In this document: in pieces, positions 781 through 64,000 of the stretch
Position numbering within the stretch: the first letter of the stretch is position 1
How the letters are laid out: each line of letters starts with the position of its first letter
Origin: Tetramitus jugosus
Lineage: Eukaryota; Protista; Heterolobosea
Assembly: GCA_937625935.1 (NCBI GenBank)
Contig: OW569356.1
Coordinates: 1 to 64,000 of the forward strand
DNA: 64,000 nt
Direction of reading: 5' to 3'
The notes under the pieces: generated by a model
The model's database searches: none
What the model was told of the DNA's origin: nothing
The model's input: the letters and a program-made list of their open reading frames with translations, nothing else
Position numbers and translations under genes: made by a program

Positions 781-2251
781 CACACCCCGAGGATCTTCGC
801 ACTTGCCTCATTGTGGTTCTGATTGGTGTGAGACTGTTTGGTTGTGGTTGATCCATTTTCCAGAAATATTTGACCAGTTCTTGTGCATCTGTGTGTTGCT
901 GAAGATCTTGTAGGTTGGCGACATTTTGAGAACAGAAGATTGACATTCGTTCATACGCGTCGATTGATTCATCTGAGTTCCAACCCACATGTCTCTTGAT
1001 TGCCTGTCTTACACTGTCCTTAATGATACCGTATCTCAAGATGCTAGTTAGGAGTGCTTGACAGATATGTCCACTTCGTAATGATCTCATAGTGTATCTG
1101 CATTTCAATTCCTCTGCAGAACTTTTTTTCATCAAGTTTGACATATCTTTGGATGTCATTGGTTGTTCACTAGTCGATTGGGTGAATAAAAATTCGTCTT
1201 GTGCTCCTTCAACTAATCTATAATCACCTGAATTGATCACTTCCTCTAACGTTGGTGAAACAAAAACCTTCCTGATGTGAAAGAGGTACCAAAGAAGAGC
1301 AAACACTGGACATCGATTCAAGTCACTACTGCCGTATACAGTGTTTCTTAACTCATGTCCTCCAACACCTTTGTTCTTATAACCCACATTCTGGGCAACT
1401 AAATACAAATGTTCATCGTTTTTCAAACTTGAAAAGGTGATGTGTCTCAATTTCATATAGGAAAGAGTGTCTCCTCTCCATCCAACATGTCTACCAAACA
1501 TTATGAGAGCTCTCAACTTAATTTGTAGTTCTCTGTTGTCTCTCTTGTGCAATTTTTTCTGCCATTTCTCTAAATCATTGTTGAGCAATGGGCACACTTT
1601 AAATTTCGAGTTCCCGTACTTTCGTATCAAAGCTCGGAAGAGTTTATGTATAAAATCCTTCATCTCTTTCTTCAAGTCGATTCCTCTTTCCTCCTTCAAT
1701 ACAGAACATAGTTGATTCCAGAAGCAGTTGACGACAGTACTATGACTGTATTTGTGTATCACTCGCATATGCAAGAGATATAATCCAACTACAAACTTGT
1801 TTGGGTTGTAAGGGTCAACTGTTGTCAACTCTGAGTGCTTGTTTTCTTGCTCCTTTAGCCAGCTAATCCAACTCCTCCAGGCATAGGCTTGAACCAGTTT
1901 TGTACCAGGAGCTTTAGATAACTCTAATAGATTCATCAATTGAATCATTTGATCCTCAATTGATTGGTTCTCATCGATGTTGACGGTCACTTGACGGCAA
2001 AAATCTTCTCCTCCACCTGTTTTCTCCATTCTCTTGATAGGATTAAACGATAGGTCATCCGTCACCTTCTTTATTCCTGTTTTTCCTGCTAACATTGAAA
2101 GCTCCTTGTCAATGTCTTCCATCGTTGGACCATCAACCTCCTGTGGTTCGAAAGAGTCTTCAACAATGATTAGACCATTAGAAACAAAAGGATGAGAAGG
2201 AGACTTTTTTATTCTTTCTAACTGATTGGAGTACTCTTCTTCTATTGTCAT
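781..2251 (-). CDS. Tyrosine recombinase (Cre/phage-integrase fold), ~490 aa, no stop codon before the telomere; absent from the ORF track
   Basis: Manual translation from ATG 2251 ([10 protein letters not shown]...) is open to 781. Core-binding-like region ([21 protein letters not shown]...VVGLYLLHM...YSHSTV); box [15 protein letters not shown]259[12 protein letters not shown]; K292 (GYKNKGVGG); [10 protein letters not shown]; EFLF; YTMR389SLR392SG; IKRHVGW424NSDESIDAY433ER. The W-to-Y spacing of 9 equals Cre W315/Y324. Confidence 0.92.
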
Positions 2252-2256
2252 TGAGA

Positions 2257-3060
2257 TTAGTTGGTTTTACTCTTTTTTTTGTTGGGACCGCTGGACGAGC
2301 TTCGTCTCTTGGAACCACCAGAGGTAGAGGTGGAAGGAGACGTGGCATTATCGCCTCCATTTTCTCTCATCTTGATAAGGAGTTGTCTAATTCTGGAAGG
2401 CATTCTATCCTGAGACAACAATTCCTTCTTGATGTTATCATCAATTGTAGAAGGACTATGTTGGGACATGACCCAATACGGGAAGGCTTCTAATGCGGTC
2501 ATACTTTCTACCATCAATTTTGGACTTCTTAAAATGGAAGTGGTCTCCAAATTTGAACTTCTCTCATTGAAGACAAGGGTTAAATGGACCAAGAACTCTC
2601 CGACTCGGATCTCTCTTAGGAAACTCTTCAATTCCGATCCGATCGGATCCGCACCCTTAATGGTTCGGAAAAGATTCGCCCCCTCCTCTCCGGTCTCCCT
2701 CTTACGAATCGCATACCTCATGCAGGCAACGATGGACACGTGTTTTCGGAGTCGTTCAAACTCCTGATCACTCATTTTGGCCATCTGACCAACCGTTTCT
2801 TGAGAATGGGGAGGCCTTTCCTCAGTCTCCACAATGACCAGAGATCTCTCCAGCCAATTCAAAGCCTTCTTTGCAGACTCACTTGGTGGAATTTCAATTT
2901 CCAATTCTTCACACAGTTCAGAGAGCTTCTCAATCTCTTGCTTCTTGTTGTTGAGATTCAATAAAGCATCTCTTAGTTGGCTTGTAAGGCTACTATTGGA
3001 AGTCTTCTCTTCCTCCAATTTTTTCTTCAAGTCTTCAATCTCCTTGCTCACCTCCTTCAC
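2257..3060 (-). CDS. ORF1 of the YR element: orphan protein with N-terminal coiled coil and basic C-terminal NLS-like tail; 5' end uncertain
   Basis: 267-aa ORF ends 5 nt before the YR ATG. The frame stays open upstream to 3159 without an ATG; the nearest ATG (3209) is in another frame, implying a frameshift or intron. Confidence 0.65.
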   Translation of the reverse strand: MKEVSKEIEDLKKKLEEEKTSNSSLTSQLRDALLNLNNKKQEIEKLSELCEELEIEIPPSESAKKALNWLERSLVIVETEERPPHSQETVGQMAKMSDQEFERLRKHVSIVACMRYAIRKRETGEEGANLFRTIKGADPIGSELKSFLREIRVGEFLVHLTLVFNERSSNLETTSILRSPKLMVESMTALEAFPYWVMSQHSPSTIDDNIKKELLSQDRMPSRIRQLLIKMRENGGDNATSPSTSTSGGSKRRSSSSGPNKKKSKTN

Positions 3061-3309
3061 TCCTTCTTTATCTTCACCGATGAAGAAGTTGTTACCAACT
3101 TTGGAGATGATAACAAGTGAACTAATTTTATTACCAGTCGTTGGTAACTTCTCTCTATATCATTAGAAACAATAAAAGAAATTGAGTTAGTTTCTGTAGT
3201 TGTAGACATGATGTAGTTGATAACCTTGTGATTTGTTTTGTTTGCGTTTGTTTTTGATCAAAACTCCGAGATTCGAAAGGAAAAACTTTGTTTATTTGTG
3301 CAGCTACTC

Positions 3310-3522
3310 GTTACACGTGCCAAGTTAACTTAGCGCTTGGAACCATCTTCTTCGCGTAGTGGTTGGCTTCGAATCATTGAACGGGGATTTACACCGCATA
3401 AGCTCATTGCATTGCGGGGACTGTCCCTGCTCCCGGATCGGGCCCTCAATTCTACCTCTCGGTAGGTCAGTTCAATCATATTTCACCTTCCACTACTGCA
3501 GACTATGGTCCACCAGTGTAAC
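3310..3522. ncRNA. Putative structured RNA (or folded ssDNA) element of unknown family
   Basis: Nested complementary segments: 3310-3316/3516-3522, 3342-3346/3505-3509, 3356-3362/3490-3496, 3376-3382/3470-3476, plus local hairpins 3320-3340, 3394-3417, 3432-3442, 3452-3465 (GAGA tetraloop on the minus strand). GC-richer than its flanks. Confidence 0.55.
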
Positions 3523-3532
3523 CAGATCTTGC

Positions 3533-3855
3533 GGCCCGTAAACGGGCCTAGGTAGAAATGAAATTTTAGAAGGGCCCGTAAACGTGCCTTAGTAAAAATG
3601 ATTTTTGGGCCGCCCGTGAACGGGCCATAGTAATCAACTGTTTGCCCATAAAAAATCAAGTCTCGGTCGCCCGTGAACGGGCTAGAGAAAAGTTGATAAA
3701 TAGGCGGCCCGTAAACGGGCTAGATAGAATAGGTGGCCCGTTCACGTGTCATAGTAAAAGCATTTTTTAGGTGGCCCGTAAACTCTCTCAATAAAAATCG
3801 ACCTTTATTACGGGCCATAGTAAAAAAGCAGTCATATGCGGCCCGTTTACGGGCC
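3533..3855. repeat. Array of ~9 copies of the 16-bp palindrome GGCCCGT-NN-ACGGGCC, typical period ~38-40 bp
   Basis: Copies start at 3533, 3573, 3611, 3668, 3706, 3735, 3773, 3801 (half-site) and 3840, separated by related AT-rich spacers (ATAGTAAAA...TTTTT.GG). Confidence 0.9.
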
Positions 3856-4040
3856 ACCAGATATGCGAAACCCAACTGAAACCCAACGGAAATCACATGT
3901 TTCGTCTATAGTTCCACAACCACAAGTCAAAAAACAACCATAATGTTAAGTTGAACATTTCAAGATATGAGGAATACAAAAACAGGTATTGTAACGCATG
4001 AATACACTCCTTGACGTACTTTTGGTTAGTGTATACGTTA

Positions 4041-4058
4041 AAACCCAAACCCAAACCC
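4041..4058. repeat. Interstitial telomeric remnant (AAACCC)3
   Basis: AAACCCAAACCCAAACCC in the same orientation as the telomere; further partial copies AAACCCAAC at 3868-3876 and 3879-3887, and AACCCAAAC at 4078-4086. Confidence 0.85.
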
Positions 4059-4800
4059 TGACAACACTCGAGGTTGCAACCCAAACGCTTCTAGATCTCC
4101 CTACTGTCAAAGTTGATCGTGTGGCGGTCCATGGAATCCCAGATGATTATCATCCATCAAACCAGGTTGAAGATGGAACAGTAATTGATCAGCAACAACT
4201 CTGGGGAGAAATCTATCTATTTAGCAACAAGTACATTTCAACCAAAATATCTCTTTCAATGGCTTGCACATGTACAATGAAATACATGTATTGTGCGAAA
4301 AACTCGTTGTTGATTCGTTCTGTTGCCTGCATCGCGATGCACCCACTGTTGTTGATCTGTCACCATTACTCTGAAACAAACAGTATCTAAGAGCCCACAA
4401 GTTGCACGACTTAATCGCGCTTCTGGGAAGAATAGAGCTGTATCATCTGTGACGCAGTTTTCATTTCTATCAGAATGGATTGTGAGTTGAGGATGATGAA
4501 GAAATCGAATTTTGTGGTCCCCAGTGATCCACTATGCCACAACCACTTGGGGTGGTTTTTAGAGTTCATAGTGAGCATATAATATTATTCCTGTCATTTG
4601 ATCGGAAGTGTTCCAATTTCTAAGCAAGCTTATAATAATGCATTGAAGCAGCAGTTTTACTACCTACTCATTTGACGCAAGTAATCACATGATTCATATT
4701 GGATTTTTGTTTCACAGGTTTGAAATCAACAGGTGATGATGATGGTGGTGATGATGATTGGGATGATAAATGGGATGAAGAAGCTCCACGATCCACTGGA

Positions 4801-8168: not shown

Positions 8169-10004
8169 TCATTCTTCAAGAGAGCATTCTTCAATATGTA
8201 CCTCACCTATACTATCATCTGTCACGATTGTCTCCGCTATCCCAAATCTACTGTCTTCAATATCAAAAACAAAAACAGTGAGATGCAACTTCAAATCAGA
8301 TCTGGATTGCAAGATCAAATGATGATTCGCATAATTCTTCTGCTTCATCTGTGCCAAAGCTTGATTCTTGAACGCTGACAGACCTTTCTTTAATTTGTCC
8401 TGCACAAATTTGTACTCGATAATATGCATTGATCGCTTCAATTTGATGAAAAGATCCAGAGTTCCGTCCAGCGTGGATCCTTCTGCCAAAAAAGTAAGCT
8501 GAGGGAAATGGCGTTTCAAATGAAGCATTGATACGTACAATGCTGCTGCATACACAGCTTCAATCTTGCCAACATTCTTCTCTCCTTGTATTGTCCGGAA
8601 CTTTGGGTGAGGAAAGGACTTGATCAATCTTCCGAGTTGCTCAAATAATTTCTTCATGTTTTCCTCTATCAGTGCTTCTTTCATCTTGATTGTAATATCA
8701 TTGTTATCAACTAACCCCAGTCTTGCTGATAGATCACTAATCAATGTTTCTCGAACAGAATTGTTGGGTACTGTTAGTTTGTTGTCTTTGATCGTCAAGT
8801 ATCCTGTCTCATAAAACAACTTTTGCATTGTTCGTGTTGAGGGTTTGATCAACTCACTCAAGTCGACAGGCTGAGTAAATTTGTTCACCACTCCTTGCGG
8901 TTCAATGATTTCAACAATGGAGTGAACCGTTGGATCAAATAATGTCCATAGGTGCATGCTTCTACCTCTTGCTGCCCAGTAATTTTCGAATTGGTGTTTC
9001 TTCAGAAGTTGATTCAGATCCCAAGGATTCAGAAGCCCTTCTGTTGCATCAGTGCAGAAATTGTAGCCATAATATTCATTGATAATTCTCTCATCCAAGT
9101 TGGCACCATACTTTCGCTCAAGTTCCTCATATGCATTCGGGTATGTATTTCTTACTTCGTCTAATGTATATCCTGTCAGAGCGTGCAAGGATGTATCAGT
9201 TGACATATCGTCAAGATCATTCATCGATGAAAATAGATTGGTATATGAAAACTTGGTCACACCAGTCATAAATAACAAGTGAATCATTGATCCAAGAGCC
9301 TTGAGTGGAGAGAAGAAAGCTCTGAGCACGTCTCTATTCTTCTTTGCAAGTGAAATATTGGCCTGATCTGTCAGATTTTCAGCAATTGCTTTCGTAATTG
9401 GACCGTCATATTCATCAATCAAAATGATTACTTGTCCAGATGGTGAGTGTCTAGCAATGTACAGTATTGTTTCGTGCAACATTCCCTCAACATCATTTCT
9501 GTTTGAAAATGCTGCCTCAATATATGCAGGTATAACCAACTTGTTCTCATAAAAGCTGTGCTTGAGAACACGTATAATACCAGAGACAGGGTCGAAAGTT
9601 GAGCAAAAAGAGAAATCCAAATGTAGTACAGGCATGTCTTTCAACTTTGTGAACAAATCCTCAGAGTTGTAAATCTCAAATTGTTGTTCATTGTTCTCCA
9701 ATGGTCCAAATGCTTCTCTTTTTCCCAAGGCAATAAGTTTCATTTGTTCAACTGTCAAAGATTTTCCCATCTTTCTTGGTCTTGTAAACAAAATCTTCTT
9801 ACCAAATTCTAGTCTCATAATTCTTTCAATCATCTTGGTTTTGTCAACAAACTTGGCACCACGCTCTCGCTCACGAAAAAAGTTTTGGGTTGTTGGAATG
9901 ACCTCGAGAGATTGATTGCGTTGTTGGGTCTTGAGATTGAAAGAACTGCGGTTCATGAAGAGACGATTCGTCCTTGAACAAAAGACACGCGAGGAACACA
10001 GCAT
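8169..10004 (-). CDS. AAA-ATPase-like domain (PF09820 type) plus C-terminal PD-(D/E)XK nuclease (PF08011 type), with a mitochondrial-like presequence
   Basis: FVDKT, RPRKMGKSL (Walker A), ILIDEYD.PI (Walker B), TGVTKFS, YYGYNF, NPW, NYW, LFYETGYLTI, VPNNSVR; nuclease motif E...GTLDL...IIEYK...ALAQM...Y. Confidence 0.9.
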   Translation of the reverse strand: MLCSSRVFCSRTNRLFMNRSSFNLKTQQRNQSLEVIPTTQNFFRERERGAKFVDKTKMIERIMRLEFGKKILFTRPRKMGKSLTVEQMKLIALGKREAFGPLENNEQQFEIYNSEDLFTKLKDMPVLHLDFSFCSTFDPVSGIIRVLKHSFYENKLVIPAYIEAAFSNRNDVEGMLHETILYIARHSPSGQVIILIDEYDGPITKAIAENLTDQANISLAKKNRDVLRAFFSPLKALGSMIHLLFMTGVTKFSYTNLFSSMNDLDDMSTDTSLHALTGYTLDEVRNTYPNAYEELERKYGANLDERIINEYYGYNFCTDATEGLLNPWDLNQLLKKHQFENYWAARGRSMHLWTLFDPTVHSIVEIIEPQGVVNKFTQPVDLSELIKPSTRTMQKLFYETGYLTIKDNKLTVPNNSVRETLISDLSARLGLVDNNDITIKMKEALIEENMKKLFEQLGRLIKSFPHPKFRTIQGEKNVGKIEAVYAAALYVSMLHLKRHFPQLTFLAEGSTLDGTLDLFIKLKRSMHIIEYKFVQDKLKKGLSAFKNQALAQMKQKNYANHHLILQSRSDLKLHLTVFVFDIEDSRFGIAETIVTDDSIGEVHIEECSLEE

Positions 10005-23899: not shown

Positions 23900-26800
23900 A
23901 TGAGTTATCGAAAGCATATCCAGCACGCAGAGGATTGTGAATATTTTTGTACCTGGTTGTCGTACCATGGATATAGGAACAAAAAGGCTGTGGATGAGAA
24001 TTGGAACGCAAAGGAATTAGAGACGGGCAGAGTTCTCGCTCGAGTTGTCAAAAAATTTGACACGCACAATTTCCATGTCTCTGAAAATTTAGCAAAGGTG
24101 AGTTGACCTATCATAAATTAACTTACATGCAATGCTTATTGATGTCTAACACAATTGAAACGAAAACAGAAAGCCAACTTTGAAGAGTTTTCCAAGTTGT
24201 GTAAGAAACACAAGTTAACTGTTCTGTGGGATCCAAAGAAAGCCTATTATGGTGATAAGGTTGAAATAGATCTGGTATGTAGTTGTTTTGTTCATGTGGT
24301 GTAGGTGGATAGCATGCTGACACATTATGATATAGGTTCTCCAAAATCTCATCGAGTTGTGCCTGTCAACAAAACTAAAAGAAAGCGAGGAAAATTCAGG
24401 TCTTTTGTCGAGAGTGAAGGCAGGAATTGGAAGCGGATTTCGGAAGTTGACTTCTACGGTCAGTACGATATTGGAGTCTGGGGATGAATGGAGTGATATG
24501 ATTGAGCACTTGCAACAATGCCAACAAGGAAGAGCTTTGGATCTGCACATAATTAACAGGGGTATCAAATGTGTGGACGGGAGATTAGATTATTTATTCG
24601 ATGGAACCAAAGGACCATCATCCACTGCTGGAAGGTATTGTTTGGAGCTATGGCAAAGTATCGAAAATATGCCAAGAGGACCACTCATTTGTTACCTCTT
24701 GTTGAAGGCTCAAGTGTATTTAGGTTGTTCAAATAGAAGAGAGGAGTATGATAGTACTTTTTTGACGCTTTTGCAGTGGCTTTGCCACAATCCACGATTG
24801 ATTGCCGAGATTCCATTCACTGATGTCTTTCAGCAGCTTCAAAAGTTAAGAGCGAAGCTGACACCTGAAACAGACTTTATTGTGACAATTATATGCATGA
24901 CGCATGAAACACTAACCACCAACACCAACACGAAAGCCAAAGAGATGTGGTATAATTTTCAATTAGGACGAAGGAGGGTTGACTATCGATTGGTATTCAC
25001 TGAAGTTCCATCTTTTGCAAGGATGCATATTGATATATTTGCTCCAAATATGTTCCCTAAACTGCAAGTCCTTCCTGATCAAGTTCCTGATTTATTTTAT
25101 CAGTTGTCAGCTTTCAGAGAGATTTTATCAGGAGTTAATCTTGAGAACCTTGCAGAGAGACTCGCGACTGACCACATGACAGAAGATAACTTCTCATCAA
25201 GTATTGCTCCCATTTCAGCTCTTTGTGCTCAAAATTATAGTCTAATGGAAAAGTGTGCAAAAAAGATGTTCGAACAGCATTATGCGAAAAAATCGTTTGT
25301 CGAGAGTGTATTTTCAACTTTTTCTGGGTTAGATAGCTCGTTGTGCAGGTCAATAATGGATTGCTATGTTTCTGCATTCAAGGACAACATCCGAAAGATG
25401 AGAGTTGATCAGTTTATGTTTGGATATACATTGTTGCCTGAGAGAAATGTATTGTTGGTGCAAGATTTTATTCAACACACTATTTTGACTTCAAACGAAT
25501 TGAAAGGCGTTGTTGAGAGCTACTTGTGTGTGGATGATTCAATAAGTTCTCCGGACAGAATGAAATCCATTTTGACAACTCTGATCTCAAAAAGCAAAGA
25601 CTACACGGACTCATTTTTGTTCATTCCATTGCATTGCACAGAATATTCCAAGATGTTTGAACCATTCGAGAATATTCTATTAGAGATTAACAACCATTTG
25701 AGGGAATTCTTTAAGCAACATCAAAATGGGTTCAATCAAATGTTTACCAAAATTTGTAGTATCAAGCGAGAAGAGAAAGAGTTTGGGAGATTGTTTTATC
25801 TATTGATCAATAGTTTCTTGGGTGTTTATTTTGAAACACAAATGACTGGAGGATCCTCTCTGCATAATCTCATGAATATCATGGGTATTCTCGAAAAGGT
25901 TCAGAGCAGAAGTTCAGTTCATCTCATCGTGTTCAATTCTGCGCTGATGGCCTGTTCCAAGCACATTAGGAACTTAAGATCTGAACCGTACGTGTATATT
26001 CGAACAGGAAAAGGTATTGCTCCATTCATTTCGACATGGAAGAACACTAAGAGCAACGACAAATCACTGATAGCCCAACAGTACAACAATGCGTTCGAGC
26101 AGTACATAAGGAGTATCTATGCAGAGCTTATTGAAGAGGTAACAATGGATGGTGAGTTACTACAAATTGAGGAGCTATTACAGTTGAGAAAAAATTTACC
26201 ACAAGTAGTAGAGCTCTGCAATGCGATTGGCATTAATTCACGATTCGATGGCCAAGTTAAAGATCTACACAATGAACTACAAGTGGCAGAGCGAACTCAT
26301 AAAGGATTAAGCACCCTACTCAATTGGTTGAGGGAGCATAAGTTTGGAACACTAAGAGAGATTGCTAATTCACCCTTGAAACCAATTGAAAACACAAAAA
26401 CGAGCTTAGGTGACTTAAGAGAAATGATACAAGAGACAGAGCAGAGACTAGCAGCTATTTCTGAAACAAAAGATGATTTACTGTACTTCATTGAGAGAGA
26501 GAGTTTATTGTTCCAAGCAGTTCTGAGGACCAAGTTGTCTAACCGAGAAACAAGTTTGAGAACACTCAATAGTTGTATCAGAGAAACTGTTTCGTTCATA
26601 TCTGCATTGTTTGATAACGATCAAATGACAATCAAAAGTTTGGAGGATGTAAATATTGACAGAGTTATCAGAAACATTAGACAGGCTAAAAGAACATTAG
26701 AGAGCGAGTTGTCTATTATCAAAGAGCGCTTCAGCAAAGGTTCTGTTAAGGTGTTTAACATTGATAAATTTGCTGCAGCTTTGAAGTTAAAAGAGTTGAG

Positions 26801-29800
26801 TACACAACTCACCGCACTTCTCGATGCGCTCACACAGTACAATATGGACTGTCACAAAACGGAGCAGGTGAAATTGATAAAAGAGAAATATGATCGATTA
26901 CAAACCCTTCAGGATACCAAGTTGGGAGACGTGCCAACAATTTTAGAAGAATTTGAAAAATTGCTCTGTGGTATGCACAGTTTCCATATGAAGTATTTTG
27001 AGCAATTATGTCAATCTGATTGCAAGCAACTTGTTGAGTTCCTGAAGAATCAAACGGATTTTGCAAAACAGATGGATATTTTGAGAGGGAAAGCCGGCAA
27101 AGACAAGTTCCAAGAAAATGTGTTGAATGCCCTCCTTGTAGCAAAAACTTATTTAGAACCGTTCCTTAACAAAGACACTTCATTAGCAAGTATTGCTGAA
27201 AAGGTGAACAGTCTTGGAAATGAAGAGGAGATTGACTTTAAACTTGAAGCCATTAAGACATGTGCTTCCAATTTAAGTCACATCAAGCTTTGGCTCTCTA
27301 GATCATCACGTATCTCTATTGAAGATACTTATCAAACCATTGAGCAACTGCAAAAGCTTGGGAAGTGGCGTTCTGCTCTCAACAACTACAAAGATGGCGC
27401 TTTCCTTACTATAGAGTACACACTTCAGGAGAACACTCAAATACTAGCGGAGGATGAGTTGAACGATCTTGTAAGAACCGCCATCTTCCACTCTACAGAT
27501 GTGAAAGGTCAAGAACTCGTCAAGTCAAAAATTACATTCCACAACTTCATTGAGTCTAACAAGTATGCATCCAAAGCCCACTTTCTGCGGTTGGCGTTAG
27601 AATCAGCCGGTCATCCTGACTATCAAGGAACCTTTGAATATCTGGGTGAAAAATTGGACAGCACAACTGTTAAACAGGTTCATGATTCATTGTCTAAGGA
27701 ACTTGACGAATGGGAAAGTTGCATTCAACAGCAATACCAGCAAGAAAGAGCAATCTTGAAGCTTTCCAGAACTCAGTATATTCGATTTCTTGGTTTGGTG
27801 AGAGAAGTTTGCGCTGATGTGACCAATGCTAATAAGGAGATTTTGACCCCATTTTTCAATGCATTGTTTCCAAAAGAGAATATTGATTTATCCAACGAGT
27901 TGGTGGTCGAATTATTCGACGAATTGAAAAGGAATAACGCTCAGAGACTCGACTTTAGTGAGGCTGTCGCTCTCATCCAGTTAGTTCGACAAAGGTTAGG
28001 CATTCAGGAGGGTGAAGATGACAGTGAAGAGAACCATCCTACTATTGTGCTCAAAGCTGAACAACTTGCTCCAGTTGATTTGTTGTGTCACACGCTGGAA
28101 AGAATAGAGATGATCGATAATGATTACACTTCGAATCGTTTTGTCGAGCCTGGACAATTATTATGGTGTTCCGAGACTACATCCATCCAGGAGCTAAGAT
28201 GGTTTGACGAGCGAAGAAAAGCATTCGCTGATGTGAACTATGTAATAATTGGTGTTGACAAGTTGTCCTCTTCTGTTCGAGAAGAACTCATCAAGCTGGA
28301 AGCTGACAAATCAAGAAGTGGCAAAACTCATCTTATATTCAACTCTGTGACCGGTTTGGATGCCTTTTCGTTCCTGGATCAAGAGATTTTGGATTCGTTC
28401 CAACAGAACCAACAGTATCGCACGTGGTTGATGGATAATCTCTCCCAATACGCGAACATAAAGAAGATCTCATGTGTGAATGGGGATGATGCATCAGGAA
28501 AGTCGACTTGGATCCGAAAGAGGATTGTGAGTGAGGGAGGTGACTATGTTCGTATTGTGGCAGCTGAAGACTTTTCAACAAAAGTGTTTTTGAATCGTCT
28601 CAAGTCTGCCCAACAAGGTTCAAAGTTAGGTGTACATCTTGACATATCACAATTTGTTGACCTAGATCAGCTAAATGCGTTCTTCTTCAACATTTTCCTC
28701 CAGGGATTGCTGATTGATTCCGCAACAGGAAGTACAGAACTCCTTCCACAATGTGAAATATCTGTTTACTGTGAATTACCGAATCACAATATCAAAGAGT
28801 TCATCCCTCTACTCTCATTATTGGTACCAAGTTCTACTACTATCAAAAACGTTCCATTTGATGTGACTGAAGAGGATCATGAAGCTAAATTGGTGGCTAC
28901 TTTTATTGCTATCAACGATAACAATCATTGGGAAGTTTATGATGACCTCTCTGGATTGGATGTTCTTCCAGCTGAAGATTGTCAACGAATTATTCGATCA
29001 TTCTTTGAGAATAACGCAATTATTGCTCCTACCATGGTTCACAGAACACTATTTGTTCGTCTAATGTATAGCAGATGCAAATTTTTGATGGAACGAACAC
29101 TCATCCGGCAAGAATTACAGCAAGAATATTATGAACCTATTGATCCATATGAAAACGGTGCAATGTTTGGTGTGTTCTTGTTGGAGTGTCAATATATGGC
29201 AAATGACAAGATTAAGCAGGATTGGAGTCAATTGCCTGTCGCGTTTTCAGCTCGCTCTCTAGAGCATTGTGATTTCTTGTACATGGGTGAATCAGATCCA
29301 ATTGCATACATTCCAGAGAATTCAATTAAACGAGACAGCCTCGCACAGGTTCGAGCTGCCTTGACTTCTGCCCTGGGTCTAGGAGGAAGTTTAATAGCCA
29401 TCATGGAGAAGTTTGGATATTGCTTAACTGTTGATTTTGCTGTCAAGCTTCTCTTGTTGAATGAAAGAAAGAGTGCAAAACTACCGGTGATTCTTCAGGG
29501 GAGTACAGGCACAGGCAAGGTATGTTTTCATTTGTTTCCAACTGTTTTTTACTCTGCTCTTTTCGAGTTCTTTGTGTTCACTCGCGTTATTGGCCCTAAA
29601 AGACTGAATTGTTGAGACTGTATGCCGAGATTCAGAACCAAAAAGCAAAATTGAAACCTGATATTGTCTTTGAAGTTCATTTGAGATGGTTTTTGCAGCA
29701 ATATGTGGCCGGTACAGAATCATTCCAACTCTACAAGAATTGTTATGACAAATATGTGCAAGAGAATGGTGTCAGATCGAACAAAACTCTCGACGAACAA

Positions 29801-32800
29801 ATCAAACAGTATAATCCAGCAGTGTTGCGTCGATACTTGACAGAGCAACTGGAACTAGATGAAGACTATTGTAGGACATTTGGAGTTGCTTTGATAGCTA
29901 AGGCGAAGAGTCTTCTTGTTCAATACCCTCTTCTTGAGTTGACTCCCTTCACAAAGAGTATCCTTCAAGCATCAGATGAAGAAGCAGTCGAATCGCTTGG
30001 AACTACAACAAGCATTATGAAATTCATGGAGGAATTCCTGAATCTTCGGGTAGGTGGGGTGTTTCATAAGATAACAATGCACAATGGATGGACTTGCAAG
30101 CAACTGAGAGACAGAATGCATTCGATTATTACTGACACTCAAACCAATGTGGAGAAATATCCAGAGTTTTCAACAGTTGTTTTTATTGACGAACTTAATA
30201 CTTCTAAATGCCTTGGTATTTTAAAGGAAATGTTTATCGATAATACTTTGGATGGTGTACAACTACCTTCTAATATTTTCCTTGTTGGTGCCATCAATCC
30301 AGCAAAAAGCGACGATAAACCAGACGAAGAAGATAGGCCTGAGTATTATGTGGAGCACATGCCAGGATCGATGGACTTGCTCATTCTTGATTATGCAGAG
30401 CTTTCTCAGAGACAGGAGCGAGAGTTTTTGACTGAGCTTGTCAGTGCAAAGAACGTCTCAAGCAATGAAAAAGAACAAAAACAGATTGTTGAGGCGATTC
30501 TATGGTCACAAAAATTTGTGCATGATCAACATTTGTGGCGTGTTCGTGTCTCGATCAGAGATATGGTTCGAGCAATCACCATCTATCAGTACTTAACAAC
30601 TACAAATCCTCTTAAGCTGATTCGAAATCATCATATATTTAATCTCTACACAGCAATTGCTCTTACCTATTACTTCCGCTTGCCCACTGATCGAAGAATA
30701 CTATTCAACCGAGGGTTTCAAGCAAATGTCGTCAAGACAAGTAATTCGATGGATTTTGTTTTCCAAGATGTGTTAAGCGAAGTATTGGATCAATTTTATG
30801 TGAGATTGAAAAATCTGCAATACATCCCAATCGGCATCGCAAAAACGCAAGCATTCAAAGAGAACTTGTTCTGCTGTATCATCTGCATACAAAGTGGAAT
30901 CCCCTTGATCATTACAGGTCCTCCAGGAACCAGCAAAACGCTCAGTTTCAACATTGCCAGCACAACCAAGAATAATTCTACTGAAAAGCTTTTTGATGCC
31001 ATGAGAACAGTGCACAAAAAACATTATCAATGTAATGAAGCATCGACGGCTCAAGAAATTAGTAATGTTTTCAAGACGCAAATTAATATGAAGAGATCCT
31101 TTGAAAAGGCAGGAATGCTTTCAGAGGTGTGTGCTGTATTTTTGGATGAGGCTGGGTTGCCCCAACAAAAGAAAGCAGCAATGAAGGTGATTCATTACTA
31201 TCTTGATCATCCAGAAGTTTCAGCTGTTATTATATCTAATGATATGCTTGATGCTGCCAAGACGAACAGAGCAATCCAACTATGCCAATCAGACACAAAA
31301 CGAGAAGATTTGAAAGCGCTATGTCTTGGATGTTTAATGTTAGAGAATGAGTGCACAGACAAGCAAACTCAAACAATTGAAGCGCTTTGTGAGTCATTTG
31401 AGCAGGTGAACAAGCAATTGAGCGCTTCAAAGAAGGGAGGACTCTTTCATCTGAGAGACTTTGTCTACTTTTTAAGAATGCTGAAACGAAATCAAAAGCG
31501 ATACAACAACGATGTTCTTCATCGGGACAACATTTACTATTGTCTGCAAAGAAACTTCAGTGGTGTTCCAAGTGCTGACTTTTCCAACATTTTGAAACTA
31601 TTCTTTGAATGCATTAACAAGAGGCTGGGCACTCGTGATCCTATTCCTGAACAGAAACAATCATATCTTCAAATCATTCGAGATAGTATCAATGATCGAT
31701 TGATGCCAGAAGAGAATCCAAATGGGGCCCCATTTCGTTATGTTCTCATTTTGGATCCTAGTGATTGTGGTTCTGCAATTAATTTGTTGTTCTCAGAAAA
31801 ATTCATTGATGCGAAGAATACTCAAGTGGTGTGTGTCAGTAACTTCCCAGATGACAACAATGAATTGTCTCAGTCAGCAGTAATCTCAAAAGTTAAACTT
31901 GCAATGGAGACTGGTCAAACAGTTGTTTTGGTGAATTCTGCCACAATCAACACAAATTTTTATGATGTGTTCAATCGACATTTTGCAGAAATGATATCTA
32001 AGAATGAGAAGGATGAGACCGTTACAAGTCATTTTGCGAATGTAGCTGTTGGAGCAACATCAAAGCCTTGCTACGTACATCCACAATTCCAGATTATAGT
32101 TCATATGCCTCAATCCGAATTCGAAGCTGCGCCTCTGCCCTTCTTAAATAGATTTGAGAAATATATTCTAGGGTACAAAGAGTTATTGAACGATAAATTG
32201 AACCAGATGAAGAGCCAGAGAAAGAATAATCATTTGATGTATCAACAATATGAACTTTTCAGAGGATTGAAGAGAGGAGTGAAACATTTTGTCGAGACAT
32301 TCTCAAAATCATCATTTTATGGATTTGTTCAATCAGAGACAATCAATTCGTTGATGTATCAGATATTGTCGAACACAGATATCCATTCTGCTCCGAACAT
32401 ACCTCAACCAATGAGAATTCAAGGAGCATTGATAGACTTGCCATCGAGACTCGAAGAAGCAAAATCAGACGAGACGTCAGCGTATTCCCACCTTCAGAGA
32501 TTACCAGAGTTCATTCGTCGCTTCAACTATCTACTGCTACAAATCGCTCGACCTGAATCTATGTATTTGAGAAAGGCTATCTTGCCAAGAGCATACATGG
32601 AAGAATATTTGACTAGACAGGAACACTTGTCTGCCAAACATTTCTTGAATAATTTGCTTGACCAGCACTTCTCCAAAGAAAATACCTCAATTGGTAAATG
32701 GATGCTCTTCACTCGATCGAGCAGCAACATCTATCAACTATTGAATTCTCCAACAGCCAAGAATCTTTTGTTGGAGACTCTCCGGCGAAATGACAAGCTT

Positions 32801-35800
32801 CCAGCTGACAGTGAGTTTGATACGGAGTATACGCTTAATATTGCCTCACTCTCAAATGTAAGCAACCAAACTGAGTGCGATTCGATTGTGAAGAAATTCT
32901 TAAAATCTGAGAGGCAGTCAATTCTTATTTTTACCGTGGATATGAGAACAGTTTCAAAGAGTCAGCTTAACTATCTGAGATATGTGATCGACAATCAATC
33001 AGCCAAAGTCGATTTGGCAAAGAAACAAGGATATTTATCTTATCTCAACAAGCAGCCTCTGATATGCTGCATTGTTCATTTTCCACCTGAGTTTATTCAA
33101 TTGAAACCAACGTATGATAGTGTGTTCAACAACTGGAATTTTGTCTATATCGACTCATTTGATTTCGAACAAAAGGGTTTAATGACGGAGACCACTCAGA
33201 CAAGTAAGTCATACGATCCTAGATTCTGGTTAGGAGTAGCCATTGGCTATACCGATTATTTCCAATCAAGCATGGACTTTATGTCAGAATTTAAAGCGCT
33301 CTACGCAAAGGCTGTCGCCGCTACTGTGATGAAACTGCCTTCAAAACCGACAGCACTAATTCACCCACACCGAAAAGTGATCATTGAAAAAATTTTAGAA
33401 AACACAGCTATAGGTGTTGTTATTCTCAAGGATTTTAGCCAAAATTGGTCCAGAGATAAGTTGTCCGCATTTACCCTTTCTGCTTGTCGATCAGTTGCTG
33501 AAGGCACATCTATTCAGAGTATTTTAGAATTAATTTACTCCAAGCTTGAGTTTACATTGGTGGATAAAGTTGAGACTTATATTGAGCAGATTGCCTATCA
33601 ATTCGACACTTTGAAAGGACTATCAGACAGGCAGTGCGATCCTTCTTTGCTGAAAGCAATATTAGAGTGTATTCCAGCACCAAACGCCTGCAATTACATC
33701 TGTTTAGAGAAAGAAGCACTTCCATTCTCTAGTATTTTCCTCAGAAAAGTAATGCACACACCTGATGAAGCTCAGATTGGGTCGTTAACTTCTGTGGAGC
33801 AATATTTCCAAAGCAAGTTCCAGGGAGTAGTACGCCAAGCAGTTGACATCATTCAAGACAAACAGCAAACAGACTTACTCTTTACTGATCTTATTCGTGC
33901 TGCATTCAATACGAGAAGAAATGAGAAACTGCAAACATTCATTGAAACAATATTGAGATTGAAGTGCATGACAATTGGGCTTGATTTATCACAGATTTCA
34001 TCGCTGCTGGCTATCCAAGTTGTGCATAATAATTTTGTGAAGGTATTGTTATTCTTTTTCACAAAGTTGCCACACAGACTGGAGGACAGAGAGTCAATGG
34101 AGAGAGTATTCACAAGCTGTAGAAACCAAGAAGAAATCATTGATAGACTTTACATGTCATCTCTGAGAAATCTTTGGGAGAAACTTGGGAAAGGCAATCT
34201 CAAGAAGTGGATATCAAAATTTGAGCGCATTGATTATAACTACATTAGTGTCAAGGCTGATAAGAGCACTCACAATTTTTATAAGTGCTGCTTCATTTAC
34301 TATAGCTACGTCAAACATTTTTCAGAAGAATGGGAAAGCATTAAGACTGATAAAAACCCATCAGATCATCAGAATGCACTTACCAATCAAACAGAGATTA
34401 TTGAATCAATCGTGAATTCTCGGGGCAATCGTCAGATAGATCCAGTGAATGGCAAACGGTGGCTGGTGGAAACAATGCTCGTACTATTCAATCAAATTCG
34501 AGGAATGAAACAGGAAGAAATGGTAACATTGTTGCGCTTAATCAATACAAATGAAGGAATATGGGCTCTGTGGCCTGTTGCCGCAAAAGCTCAACTTGTG
34601 CAGTCTTTGTTCAACTCCAGACGGAATTGCTCATACATGATTGAAAATTTAATTGATGAAGAATTACGAAGAACACTAGTTGATGAATCCATACAAACTC
34701 CTGAGATAGATGTCGGTGAGGAGATATCATCGGGCATGTTGGAGCAGCTACTTTTGAGAGCAATGCTCTCTGAGTTAGCAGAGAGTGACTTTGAACACTT
34801 GTATGAAGAATATCTCGAAATAGACAAGCAGAATGCATCGAGATTTAATCGATTGTTTATCTATGCTTATGAGGTATCATTGATCTCATCACTCGCGAAA
34901 CTATTCTGTTCTGACTCTCCCACAAAAGCACTACAGGAATTGACTGAAAAGCAAACCGAAGTAGTGTGCACATTGATGAATGAGAACAAAAAGGTTCAAC
35001 TCTTTTTCTTATCTCAAGTCAGGCCAAGTAACCATCTGTCTAACCTTTTACGTCTCGACAACGATGCAAAATTACGAGCAATTGGTCTGAGTAACTGGGC
35101 CATGGAAGATATTGAAATTACAAACAGTACGAGTTATCACTTCTCATTCATGTATGACGAATCAAACCAAGGGAACGCCTACCGATCAATGATCAATCTA
35201 TTCAAGGCAACGAATCTGGAGAATTTGAAGGCATACGTGTTGCAAGAACCGAATACTTATCAAACAAGAATGTTCTTATTGCTCGTCTGCTTCAATGAAT
35301 ATTTCTTGGAGTGCAATCCATGCCCAATCTTGGACAATTTGCTCCAAGATCAAGCAATCGTCAATCATCTGCATGTAACTGGAGAAGAAATGAAGGCATA
35401 TCAATTCTATTCTCGTGGGCCCCACGATGAACCTGAAGAACGACATCACTTGGACAAGTACGTGACATATCACTTCTCTAAGCAACATCTTCAGTCAAAT
35501 GCTTCCAAAGAAGCCACTTATTTGCTCACAAATATTGCTGCAGTTTGTTTGGGAGTTCCAAAGAACAAGAATCATATGTACAATCGAATGTTCCATCCAG
35601 AGGTTTTGCATGATAGCTTCTCACCTGGATCAACATACAATCACGTTTCTTGGGATTGTGGATTCCAAACTGATGGTCTTCAAATCATATATTTCAGTGA
35701 ATATGCAAGAAATATATTGAATGGCAATCAGATGTATCACTCGGCGTTGAACACTTTGACGTGGGGTGCCTTCGCATTGTGCATGCTCTTTGATCCTCAA

Positions 35801-38098
35801 AGAAACTGCAAATTATCAAAGGATAATCACATGCTCAATTATGTAGGAAGAGATGGCCATGGTGACCGTAATTTATCGGAGATTGACATGGTGTCGAAGT
35901 ATATTTTCACGAGATTTGTCAGCTTTTTATCCTTGGTCAGCATCAGTCACGCGATATCCTCTCAAAATATCGATCTGACTGTATTCTTCACCTATTCTCT
36001 CATGCATTTCTTCAATCATGCTCCCACCTCTGACAAAGCAATGGGCTATTGGGCAATGAATGGGGACTTGGCTCCTCAAATTCGTGCATATGAAAACTTT
36101 ATCAGAGATCAATGTTTTCAACCTGTCATTGACGGATATGGACAGATTCGAGAAGCAATTCAGAGAGGTTCAAGGAATAATCAAAAGTTAAGAGAGCTCT
36201 TCGAACATCAGAATATATTGACCACAAAACAAGATCAGTTCAACTATTTCCCAAAACTGACTGCTGCTCTGGAAGACTTGACCCGAATAGACCCGCAAAA
36301 AGTTCCAACCATCACCTTGTACAACCAATTAGAACAGAAGCTCAAAGCATTGCAACAGCTACCAGTATTGATTGAGTTTTACATTGTGCTTCACTCAAAA
36401 CTGAACAAGAAACTCAAGAAAGGAGATGAATTGAGTATGACTGGTATTCAAGCTGTTCAACACTGTGGTGGTGAGTGTGTTAACCTGTGGCGCTCCTTCC
36501 AAACAGCATGGAATTCGTGCAAAGAACAGCTTGGCCAACTACAAGTCTGCCATTTTGCAGAAGAGAACGGCGAAGCAAGTATTATCGATATGAATGATGA
36601 TGTTCCTTTATTGTCTCTGCTGAAAACTGAGAATAATGAGATTTTACGCATGATCGAAAGTTTGATTACCACCACACAAGAAAAAGTGACCGAGCAGAGT
36701 GAAACACTTGAGACACTAGAATGTGGCCTTATACCACAAATGGACCTTGCTCTATGCTCATCTCTGTTGGCATCGCCTCAAGATCACCTTGAACTCTATG
36801 CTAACTCTTCTTGTTTCATTGACGACAATGGGCGCATATTTGATTGGATTTTGATTGATGAACTATTCAAATTCAGATTCATGTTAGGACCTGTAAAACT
36901 CAGCACTAGTGCTCTCAATGGTATTGACTTCAAATATCAAAACCTAAATCCAGAATCTGAAATCGCCGAACCAATGGAAGACGGTGACAACGAGACAGTA
37001 GCCCTCAAAACTCTGCATCAACTCATTGAACGCATGAAATATTACCATTGTCAGGACTTGAGCACGATGAGCAATTCAACCAAGAATATGCTAAACAAAC
37101 ATATAGGTCGACCTCAAAAAAGATATCACATGATTGATGAGTTGAATCGTTTGATGATACATATAAGAACTGAAGCCCAGGAATTGGTGGAAATTAATTT
37201 TTCTGCCACTCTAATTCACTACGGCCAATCGAAACAAATTGACATTCCAGAGTTATCAAAGTTCAAATTTATGACAGTCGTTCAGCTTGCCCACATTGTT
37301 GACTTGTCTGAACATGTTTTCAATTATTCTTTGACTCAATCTCTGCCTACAGATAACTTCTCCAGCTTAAATACAGCACTCTCAGCCGAAACGCAACAAC
37401 ACTTGAATAAGTTTGAACAAGAAACTCTAAAATGCTTAGACAATGAACCAAATGATGAGCCAGTTGACTTCATCCGAGAACTCACTAACATATTCGTATC
37501 AAACTCAGACAAGCTAGCTACTTGTACACAACAAAAGACTAAGCTTTCAGAACTATTTAAGGATGAATTGAGTGGTTTTAATGCCGAAATGTTGCATGCT
37601 GTGCTTCCAAATACAGTGTATGTTGAAAACTATGGTGAATTCATGAAATTTGCAAGGCTTCTCTGTGGTAAATATGACTTCAAGAAATCGATGATGCCTC
37701 AGGCAGTCTACAAAGAAATGACTAAACTGGACAAATCTGTTGGTGAAATGACTCTCGAAGGCAACGAACCCATCGCAGAATCAGAAGATCAATCGAACAA
37801 CCCAGTGATTGAAACAACACAAGAAGCTACCAGTTACGCAATGATCTATGAAGAAGACAGTAGTGTGATGTATTTCGACAAAGTGCTCTCCCATTCACGA
37901 AATGAAGAAGTGAGGCAGCTAATGAACAGCACCTCGAACCTTGAAGCGGAAGTGAAACAGTTGAGAGAGCAACACAAACTCATGATTGATGACATTCACT
38001 CAATGGAACTTCTCATCACTGATCTGACTATGTTCGAAGAAGATATTGACAGACTAACCAAACTTGACAAACTAGTGGATTCTATGATTTACCAATAA
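23900..38098 (+). CDS. RNF213: RNF213 (mysterin)-like giant dynein-type AAA+ ATPase, ~4,660 aa, 4 exons (23900-24097, 24170-24274, 24336-29519, 29603-38098)
   Basis: GT-AG introns join the exons in phase 0; the 83-nt intron 29520-29602 splits Walker A GSTGTGK|T. RNF213-type motifs: FIDELNT, IPLIITGPPGTSKTLS, YQC, VFLDEAGL, KVIHYYLD, ISNDMLDAAKTNRA, LRDF, RNFSG, SNFPDD, AMETGQTVVL, PFLNRFEK. Confidence 0.88.
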
Positions 38099-41392: not shown

Positions 41393-41929
41393 GTTGTTAT
41401 TATTATTGTTGTTATTAAAATGTACATTGTCACTAGTGTTGAGAGTATTTCCCGTACCATCTGATCTACTACTACCACTACCACCACCATTATATGTCGC
41501 TTGAAAATTGGGACTTGCTGCATGAATCAACTCTATTGTTTTTTCAATCAAAGATTGTTGATCATCATCAGCATCACCATTACTACTACTATCACTACTA
41601 TTACTATTACTATTACTACTACTATTACTATTGTTGTTTCTATAGAGATAGACACACTTGTCTTCCAATGAGACACGATATGAATAATAAGAATGAGAAT
41701 AGGGTGCTGTCTCACTACTCACATTGTTGTTGTTGCTATTATCATCATCATGATCATCATGAGAAACAGGTGCTTGAGTAGTAGTAGTAGTAGTAGTAGT
41801 AGAAGGCATGAGAGACAAGAGTGCTTGTGTCACTTTGGCAACACAATTCTTGCACTTCATTCCTGTGATTTGAATCACAGCCATCACATGATCATTGGAC
41901 TGCTGCTGTTGCTGTTGCTGTTGCATCAT
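38165..41929 (-). CDS. Copper-transporting P1B-type ATPase (ATP7/Ccc2/HMA5 class)
   Basis: Three GMxCxxC HMA domains, TGE, CPC, DKTGT, SEHP, GDGIND, YN and MxxSS motifs; poly-N/S/T microsatellite inserts in the N-terminus. Confidence 0.97.
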
Positions 41930-50090: not shown

Positions 50091-50163
50091 GGTCGTTTAG
50101 CTCAGTCGGTAGAGCGTTGGTCTAATAAGCCATTGGTCGCAGGTTCGATCCCTGCAACGACCA
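50091..50163 (+). tRNA. tRNA-Ile(AAT)
   Basis: Acceptor stem GGTCGTT/AACGACC, A-box TAGCTCAGTCGG, anticodon loop CTAATAA, B-box GGTTCGATCC, downstream T-run terminator. Confidence 0.96.
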
Positions 50164-50239
50164 CATATTTTTGTGTTATTTTTCGTTTATGGACCAGAGC
50201 TTTATTGGATACGATGTTGCAGACTTCGAGTGTAAGCAA

Positions 50240-63600: not shown

Positions 63601-64000
63601 TTCAGGCATTAATGGATATACAACCATAAACTGATCGACTCTCATCTTTCGAATGTTTTCCTTTAATGCAGAAACATAGCAATTGAGTATCGTTTTGCAC
63701 AACAAACTCTCAAACCCAGAAAACGTTGAGAAAACGCTCTCAACCAATGACTTCTTTGCATAATGCTGTTCGAACAACTTTTTTGATAGCTTCGCTATCA
63801 GGCTATATTTTCGACCACAAAGAGAAAGAGGAGCAATGCTTGATGAAAAGTTATCTTCTGTCAAGTGCTCAGCTGCAAGTCTCTCTGCGACATTCTCAAG
63901 ATTAACTTCAGATAAAATCTCTCTGAAAGCTAACAACTGATAAAATAAATCAGGAACTTGATCAGGAAGGACTTGCAGTTTAGGGAACATATTTGAAGCA
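60613..64000 (-). CDS. Truncated inverted paralog of the RNF213-like gene (5' end beyond the window)
   Basis: ~62330-64000 closely matches ~25040-26720; followed by a diverged second copy of the same module and a tail (EFLEYVELKHIVDLSEHIL) matching the RNF213-like C-terminal region; no AAA motifs. Confidence 0.88.
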   Translation of the reverse strand, partial: ASNMFPKLQVLPDQVPDLFYQLLAFREILSEVNLENVAERLAAEHLTEDNFSSSIAPLSLCGRKYSLIAKLSKKLFEQHYAKKSLVESVFSTFSGFESLLCKTILNCYVSALKENIRKMRVDQFMVVYPLMPEGNVLLVQEFIQHNNLTSNELKSVIEGFLCVNDSIGSLDRMKSILTTLISKSKDYADSFLFIPLHCTEYSKMFEPFENILLEINNHLREFFKQHRNGFNQMFTKICSIKREEKEFGRLFYLLINNFLGVYFETQMTGGSSLHNLLNIMGILEKVQSRSSVHLIVFNSALMACSKHIRNLRSEPYVYIRTHKGIAPFISTWKNTKSNDKSLIAQQYNNAFEQYIRSIYAELIEDVTMDGELLLIDELLQLRKNLPKVVELCNAIDLNSHFDVQVKNLHNELQEAERTHKGLSTLLNWLREHQFGTLREISDSPLKPIENTKTSLGDLREMIQETERRLAAISETKDDLLYFIERESLLFQAVLRTKLSNRETSLRTLNNCIRETALFISALFDNDQMIIIGLEDVNIEIVIRHIRQAKRTLENELSIICKNNRDLDPKLLVEKLVIDHSTKGVFAISHLALLLSALCKENKSSAKKWAVKIFENNYGNKVFVERLLASLALMESSQRNAIKDCYASVIQRNIERMSVDQFVVGCRLLPSVNNETLVQEFMKHNSLAPDELKIIVDSCLSVADLISSSDRMKLILGLLISKSITYSDSFLFISLHCPKFSHLFESLENTLDIEADLINIYQQYQDEFNQIFGKVCTIEIEEKEFGKLFHLLTNSFLSVFFGTQMTQETPEDKVNKITQIIRDMDTSNPIHAIVIHKALMIISPHIRSIRYKPYFSFRTGEGLTKFISLWNVTKNNQLSPIACHYSSNFEQYVRQLFVDLIGEINSDKIVGEELVQLRQNRSLVREFCDTIELSTLFEEQAQSWFDKIDLMDALPKFDTAIKQIRREYGHRLEIMSDSTKSKLAGHMTLVSSQVQIINSLSRLMIYLTDSKSTSINFSDTMIRYAKKNQVQFSPLSDFEFLEYVELKHIVDLSEHILRLFPQIIENIDDECVGSTMKETSSFEIRLATLEQNVQEIKQNVQEIKQEARQNVQEIKQTVDLILKLLLKDS

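Follow-up and report, generated by a model that had tools for sequence, protein, structure and literature searches.

We found that positions 3310–3522 of the window, the whole 64,000-nt stretch of DNA analysed here, contain a real, element-linked and conserved structure of no known Rfam family, which is likely a functional RNA on the coding (minus) strand. As to mechanism, the choice stands between a leader of the message and a discrete small RNA, and the margin is small. The structure heads a two-gene unit, which agrees with its placement upstream of an ORF1–recombinase pair in an earlier note on this DNA. Truncated as it is, the unit measures about 3.3 kb and has TTTGGG repeats on both sides, with one natural end within the window. 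TTTGGG is the telomere repeat of the heterolobosean Naegleria gruberi, according to the accessible text of the source (PMC3622300). Read on the minus strand towards the telomere, the order is about three telomere repeats, an AT-rich stretch, seven palindromes, the structure, a spacer, ORF1 and the recombinase gene. The parts are as follows.

1–787 (no strand assigned): terminal telomere array (CCCAAA)n, 131 copies of the 6-mer, with irregular last repeats at the junction
787–2251 (minus): tyrosine recombinase gene, 3′-truncated, with no stop; it enters the telomere after about 488 codons
2257–3159 (minus): open frame of ORF1 with 300 codons, the N-terminal part resembling a coiled coil; the ATG of the recombinase comes 5 nt after the ORF1 stop
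3057–3209 (minus): frame of 50 codons opened by the first ATG that follows the structure; it shares about 100 nt with ORF1, read in a different frame
3210–3309 (minus): A-rich, GC-poor spacer with AATAAA (3296–3291), T5 in a pyrimidine tract (3285–3281) and CAAA repeats
3310–3522 (minus): putative structured RNA; its four long-range helices are nested, and it further has an internal loop rich in purines, three hairpins on a four-way junction, and one hairpin beside the outer helix
3533–3855 (no strand assigned): palindrome array, 7 x GGCCCGTNNACGGGCC with at most two mismatches, units about 38–67 nt apart, ending 10 nt before the structure
4041–4058 (no strand assigned): inner tract of about three telomere repeats, likely the inner boundary of the element

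Fold of the structure and choice of strand

Folding of the minus strand in a 471-nt context gave an ensemble dominated by all four nested long-range helices that the earlier note had described, each at its expected place. The mean pair probability was 0.98 for the outer helix (3310–3316/3516–3522), 0.98 for 3343–3346/3505–3508, 0.99 for 3356–3362/3490–3496 and 0.98 for 3376–3382/3470–3476. The second of these had been given as a five-pair helix (ACCAT/ATGGT); four of its pairs are firm, but the fifth, 3342/3509, competes with a slid register. The four enclosed local hairpins (3319–3334, 3394–3417, 3432–3442 and 3452–3465) were likewise recovered at the sites where they had been claimed, and the last of them carries the predicted GAGA loop of the GNRA type on the minus strand.

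The comparison with shuffled sequences proposed in the earlier note came out in favour of the fold on both strands. The minimum free energy of 3310–3522 was −76.7 kcal/mol on the minus strand (z −4.44) and −73.7 kcal/mol on the plus strand (z −4.74), and 0 of 200 shuffles folded as well on either strand. Looser boundaries gave weaker scores, with z −3.3 for both 3260–3560 and 3290–3540 and −2.35 for the wide stretch 3200–3530; the inner domain 3376–3476 alone reached only −1.8 (minus strand and 60 shuffles in each case). Of 158 background tiles (213 nt, 12 shuffles per tile) taken across the window, three had a z below −4, namely a tRNA, the neighbouring palindrome array and one other, and none had an energy as low as −76.7 kcal/mol. 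Three nested perfect helices of at least 7 bp occurred in 0 of 5000 shuffles. Tile 41601–41813, which lies within coding sequence, had a z of −4.1 on 12 shuffles only and is probably noise. The palindrome array (3533–3860) folds as strongly as the structure (z −4.75).

Folding energy by itself gives no choice of strand. Purines make up 53 of the 77 unpaired bases on the minus strand vs 26 of 81 on the plus strand, and these purine-rich unpaired bases, together with the GAGA loop, favour the coding strand.

Related copies of the structure

Copies were compared by means of Logan contigs aligned to 3150–3620, drawn from four runs (X1–X4) that represent at most three samples and two studies; each contig was viewed as its aligned part plus up to 30 loose letters on each side. 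Three parts of the structure were distinguished in this way.

3424–3469 (minus): most conserved core, defined by a soil contig of run X4; GAGA-loop hairpin, linker, CCCG/CGGG hairpin and AGCAG linker
3376–3476 (minus): helix 3376–3382/3470–3476 with its enclosed junction; four of seven pairs compensated in the same soil contig
3394–3417 (minus): variable hairpin; one copy retains a stem of only 3 bp, and another holds different, apparently longer sequence

The soil contig is 406 nt long and aligns over 3424–3469 only, with two differences in 46 nt and no gaps. Beyond the aligned core, reading by eye showed that the plus-strand arms ATTGAAC/GTTCAAT are replaced by ATCATAG/CTATGAT, which are perfectly complementary and in the same register: CTATGAT stands directly after the core, and ATCATAG lies 12 nt ahead of an anchor that it shares with the window arm. 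The chance that four random changes per arm coincide and restore the pairs is about 3.5 × 10−4, a value that refers to one event in one helix of one 406-nt soil contig, which may or may not be linked to a recombinase gene. A compensatory change in a homolog, set beforehand as a test in the earlier note, was thus observed for one helix in one diverged copy. Hairpin 3394–3417 is cut down to a 3-bp stem in the soil contig, and a contig present in X3 and X4 has a different sequence within it.

In a second variant, seen in all four runs, the core and the 3490–3496 arm are kept, and the arms of the two outer helices are changed, with their partners out of view. In X1 this variant runs from the structure into the palindrome array, with the joint between 3488 and 3625. 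Its change at 3499 would produce a wobble on the plus strand or a mismatch on the minus strand if uncompensated. Wobble-type changes were dropped as strand evidence because the partner base is out of view for three of the four. Covariation support is therefore limited to helix 3376–3382/3470–3476, with none for the two outer helices.

Selection on an RNA fold is known to leave junctions conserved, helices compensated and hairpins free to vary in length. As judged from the one soil contig, the conserved junction core, the single compensated helix and the length-variable hairpin of the present structure point to such selection, likely on the coding strand. It seems highly improbable that the structure is a neutral by-product, in which chance inverted repeats would have acquired paired changes through template switching at the DNA level. 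Such an origin would suit the low score of the inner domain, the adjoining palindrome-rich region and the finding of compensation in one contig. On the other hand, nesting of this kind was absent from the 5000 shuffles, the core is kept while its flanks diverge, and 7-bp arms about 90 nt apart would be poor substrates for template switching.

Least probable of all the readings is one of the three options of the earlier note, a folded single-stranded DNA that serves the recombinase as substrate in the manner of attC or CTXphi. The structure also folds as DNA (z −2.9 on the minus and −4.0 on the plus strand), and its outer arms resemble integron core words at six of seven letters. However, these words stand in the order opposite to that of attC, the outer arm differs in the second variant, and the stems change in sequence where the junction does not. 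Moreover, about 500 nt separate the structure from the likely end of the element, inside which it lies, and its GNRA and purine-rich loops suit RNA.

The depth of coverage in X1 was 166–174 for contigs of the structure and 172–180 for those of ORF1 and the recombinase, with diverged contigs at 39–52. Equal depth of the three is consistent with one repeated unit, though depth is not copy number. The stretch 4000–4300 has the same X1 depth as the unit, so near-identical copies may be subtelomeric duplications, and mobility of the unit is what we infer. The palindrome array is covered more deeply than the genes in X1 and X3 and may therefore be common to further subfamilies. A contig of X1 and X2 departs from the window at 3325–3328, right after TTAA in the outer hairpin loop, and continues with about 1060 unrelated bases, possibly reflecting an insertion or a 5′-truncated copy. 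The sole RNA run compared (X16) covers 2548–2798 at a depth of 2.2 but no part of the structure, and has no bearing on it either way.

Searches elsewhere gave no further copies. The 64-kb window contains no second copy of the structure, and blastn returned one 23-nt match at E 8 in phages and none in plasmids. Scans with the core pattern gave 25 loci in metagenomes, all chance on inspection, 0 matches in prokaryote genomes, and none in one viral scan and two in another, both inside phage coding sequence resembling terminase. Nor was the DNA surrounding relatives recovered, from metagenome contigs (0/299 pattern matches), viral contigs (0/75, 0/3 and 0/1) or prokaryote genomes (0/123).

The recombinase and its telomeric unit

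According to the structure model, which has a mean pLDDT of 82, the protein encoded next to the telomere is a tyrosine recombinase with a Cre-like fold. Foldseek gave 53 matches at E ≤0.001, the top ones being Cre (E 3.4 × 10−8) and XerH; an earlier model built from seven sequences (pLDDT 49) was discarded. Among the alignment rows with a residue at the site, the catalytic positions are near-invariant (R259 36/36, K292 35/35, R389 31/33, R392 30/31, W/H424 29/30 and Y433 26/27), so that both fold and active site bear out the earlier identification as a recombinase. R389 stands where H is usual, and the family thus has R-S-x-R instead of H-x-x-R.

A profile search retrieved 66 relatives at E ≤0.001. 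Five of 41 aligned family members matched Phage_integrase and none of the 41 matched DUF3504. The family comprises about 66 divergent recombinases (P0013–P0072), with a chromodomain in one of the 41 aligned members. Full-length relatives have 710–806 aa, and an X1 contig carries the recombinase gene on past 787. The window copy is cut mid-frame at 780–790 and capped by irregular first telomere units, as in new telomere addition. Organism names were obtained for six of ten relatives looked up, and all were Naegleria or Willaertia, which are heteroloboseans. Together with the TTTGGG repeat, these names make a heterolobosean amoeba the likely host. The five closest relatives (P0001–P0005) lie on contigs of 4.0–6.4 kb, and two of them, P0002 and P0004, enter telomere-repeat translations near their ends. 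In P0002, about three telomere repeats are followed by LTETLT, and the inner end of the window unit reads LTYTLT after its own tract (4041–4058); across the window, 4 of 127,948 positions give a match of 5/8 or better. Judged from protein alone, the telomere translations and the likeness of the two ends suggest that related elements, which share a conserved end, are arranged head to tail within telomere tracts, and that breakage and healing have recurred.

The seven palindromes compare with an expectation of 0.02, and we infer that the array provides candidate promoter or protein-binding sites. An 11-mer similar to the telomere repeat occurs two to three times in the likely element end (3867–3892). 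Inside the inner telomere tract, the stretch 4059–4300 varies and exists in several copies in X1, X3 and X4, and a tblastn search found no recombinase remnant in it.

The start of ORF1 is unusual in that no in-frame ATG lies near the start of its frame; the first ATG downstream of the structure, 100 nt away, opens the overlapping 50-codon frame at 3209. As the X1 contig over 3057–3209 is identical to the window, expression of ORF1 likely depends on an intron or a programmed frameshift. Many candidate introns would join ATG 3209 to ORF1, none of them convincing. No homolog of ORF1 was found among 3022 candidates, and its profile matches were weak only, likely due to the coiled coil.

The unit was compared with three groups of elements. 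Cryptons, according to the accessible part of PMC13465315, consist of a recombinase and an optional second gene, have no terminal inverted repeats and carry short direct repeats reflecting microhomology to the target. They are eukaryotic tyrosine-recombinase DNA transposons; in the present unit, short telomere tracts form the bounds. Unlike in Cryptons, the named family members are heterolobosean only (the six of ten) and none of the 41 gave a DUF3504 match. The kinetoplastid retroelements TATE and VIPER share the order of ORF1 then recombinase, and TATE occurs as tandem clusters inside telomere hexamers, as stated in the available text of PMC6681497, whose main text nowhere uses the word ribozyme. 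These elements, however, carry RT/RNase H and terminal repeats (split direct in VIPER); no RT was seen in the window copy, whose 3′ part is missing. A relative of 1412–4030 aa, the size that a fusion with RT would have, was not found, which is a weak test. In endogenous nimaviruses, a tyrosine recombinase is tied to telomere-repeat insertion, and no RNA element is mentioned in the accessible text (PMC10871703). The likeness, a telomere-associated tyrosine recombinase, is one of description; the same text presents these as viral genomes of 278–401 kb in crustaceans, with C2H2 and SAM-like domains in the recombinase, which sets them apart from the present unit.

By title and abstract, the literature contained nothing on Cryptons at telomeric targets that matches the present case, and work on Naegleria recombinase transposons gave no description of a heterolobosean recombinase family. 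The telomere-associated recombinase element therefore appears to be undescribed. Nor was a report found of a structured RNA in a eukaryotic tyrosine-recombinase transposon, in a literature coverage that leaves out most subscription journals.

Candidate functions of the structure

A scan of the whole window against Rfam gave only a tRNA at 50091 above the gathering threshold, which is in keeping with the earlier note's failure to recognise a known ncRNA class in the structure. Rows at E ≤10 scored 7–13 bits, far under their thresholds; the only ribozyme row, CPEB3 (E 4.5), falls in the palindromes, and none of the rows is an SRP model. ARAGORN found no tRNA cloverleaf in the structure.

Our preferred reading, held tentatively and at somewhat less than even probability, is that the structure is an RNA 5′ leader acting in cis on the ORF1–recombinase message, much as an IRES or translation platform does. 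It is the best fit of the three options offered in the earlier note. Transcription would start at or upstream of the palindrome array, from its own promoter or by read-through from a neighbour, and would pass through the structure. All six AUGs inside the structure close ahead of ORF1. A scanning ribosome would be blocked by these and by the fold of −77 kcal/mol, and the failure of scanning is the reason for proposing a platform for internal entry or shunting, by which ribosomes might reach ORF1 via the unstructured A-rich spacer. The conserved junction, with its GNRA hairpin and purine-rich linkers, may be a factor-binding site, and ribosomes or an element protein would engage the message through the leader platform. 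The recombinase could then be made by re-initiation 5 nt past the ORF1 stop, and it would insert the element into telomere repeats by protein–DNA recognition, without base-pairing help from the structure. The leader was put ahead on account of strand and position, of the lack of another promoter-like array separating the structure from ORF1, and of the fact that telomere targeting is known for the recombinases of TATE and nimaviruses from sources whose accessible text does not mention an RNA.

In the central domain of picornavirus-type IRESs and the structured leaders of retroelements, a long interrupted stem is topped by a multi-way junction that includes a GNRA loop, and a pyrimidine tract and an AUG follow downstream. 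The structure and spacer would have the same anatomy, by analogy only, as there is no Rfam IRES match and no sequence similarity.

Several features equally suit a discrete small RNA: the 5′ and 3′ ends are paired, and AATAAA and T5 follow within about 30 nt of the outer helix. Such an RNA, encoded by the element and running for about 215–240 nt from the palindrome array to the T5 run, might work in trans, either by serving ORF1 or the recombinase as scaffold or cofactor or as a decoy that draws off a host RNA-binding protein; we regard this as rather unlikely, yet as the nearest competitor of the leader. In its favour, the palindrome array stops 10 nt upstream, AATAAA stands at 3296, and the T5 at 3285 is the only T run of five in 3200–3530. 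A degenerate B-box-like word is also present, at a frequency of 17 in 5000 shuffles, although it was noticed after the fact and deviates at a base that is invariant in the B box. The lack of a fused RT-type relative is a further, weak point, as a DNA element needs a structured message less. However, the spacer is AT-rich (GC 0.315), hence such words are common.

The earlier note had also proposed a cofactor or guide for the recombinase. The cofactor role falls under the small-RNA reading just given; a guide that would base-pair with telomere or element end found no support. The longest match to the telomere is 4 nt on either strand, which argues against a simple guide or template, and pairing with the element end, palindromes, spacer or genes was nowhere above chance (56 to 198 of 200 shuffles as good). 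IS110 bridge RNA and Fanzor omega RNA are RNA cofactors of DNA elements that pair with target DNA. The present structure resembles them as a structured non-coding stretch beside the enzyme gene of a DNA element, but it has no above-chance match to telomere or element end, and its enzyme is a Cre-fold tyrosine recombinase. A bolder version would have the RNA required, as an RNP with ORF1 or the recombinase, for self-stacking into telomere repeats, making this an RNA-dependent tyrosine recombinase, or else forming a new ribozyme class at the element head; we consider this improbable.

More doubtful still is a ribozyme of some undescribed class, self-cleaving or capping, which would free the element message from a read-through transcript. 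HDV-like ribozymes cut the R2 message out of a read-through transcript. Lariat-capping ribozymes are present in the heterolobosean lineage, where they serve homing-endonuclease messages, and their hallmark is a P3/P15 pseudoknot, as described in the available part of PMC4167309. Like the lariat-capping ribozyme GIR1 of that source, the structure would be a compact RNA placed immediately before an ORF of a mobile element from a heterolobosean, and its junction letters are kept while helix letters change. In contrast to GIR1, neither a P3/P15 pseudoknot nor P7 was found in it, it does not lie in an rDNA intron and it has no Rfam match; indeed no Rfam ribozyme reached its gathering score. Hammerhead core words and a strict HDV-like descriptor, both used without a positive control, gave 0 matches on either strand of 3230–4060. 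The two group I P7 words never occurred in order on one strand, as they fall on opposite strands, and no pseudoknot of more than 5 bp was found among the unpaired stretches.

It is very unlikely that the structure is a captured or mimicked host ncRNA, for which the S domain of SRP RNA would be the closest model. The overall shape, a long interrupted stem with terminal hairpins, is similar, and an SRP54-binding-like word (AGG, 12 nt with a hairpin, AGCAG) occurs in the conserved core at 3447–3427, once in 830 nt. The word was, however, picked after the fact from about ten motifs tried, and appears in 83 of 5000 shuffles. SRP RNA has a GNAR tetraloop on helix 6 and a GRRA-type apical tetraloop on helix 8, according to the accessible text of PMC2905702. 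Both are absent here, the first hairpin loop being GAGA and the second AUC, and Rfam gave no SRP model at E ≤10. Helix 8 variants other than tetraloops exist in the SRP RNA of plants and trypanosomes.

Structured RNAs beside mobile-DNA enzyme genes have repeatedly proved to be new ribozymes, IRESs or guides. As a leader, the present structure would be a new and compact RNA for the control of translation, from a eukaryotic lineage that has received little study, and would hint at how genes are expressed within telomeric arrays; as a cofactor, it would provide an RNA partner for the Cre/Xer class of enzymes.

Further features were noted elsewhere in the window. Near the telomere, 8169–10004 (minus) contains a gene of bacterial type for an AAA-ATPase-like protein with a PD-(D/E)XK nuclease, and a tRNA-Ile(AAT) gene lies at 50091–50164 (plus). 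Two very large neighbouring ORFs with P-loop motifs (1752 and 2829 aa) occupy 24357–38098, and the first of them has a partial paralog about 36 kb further on (60613–63990).
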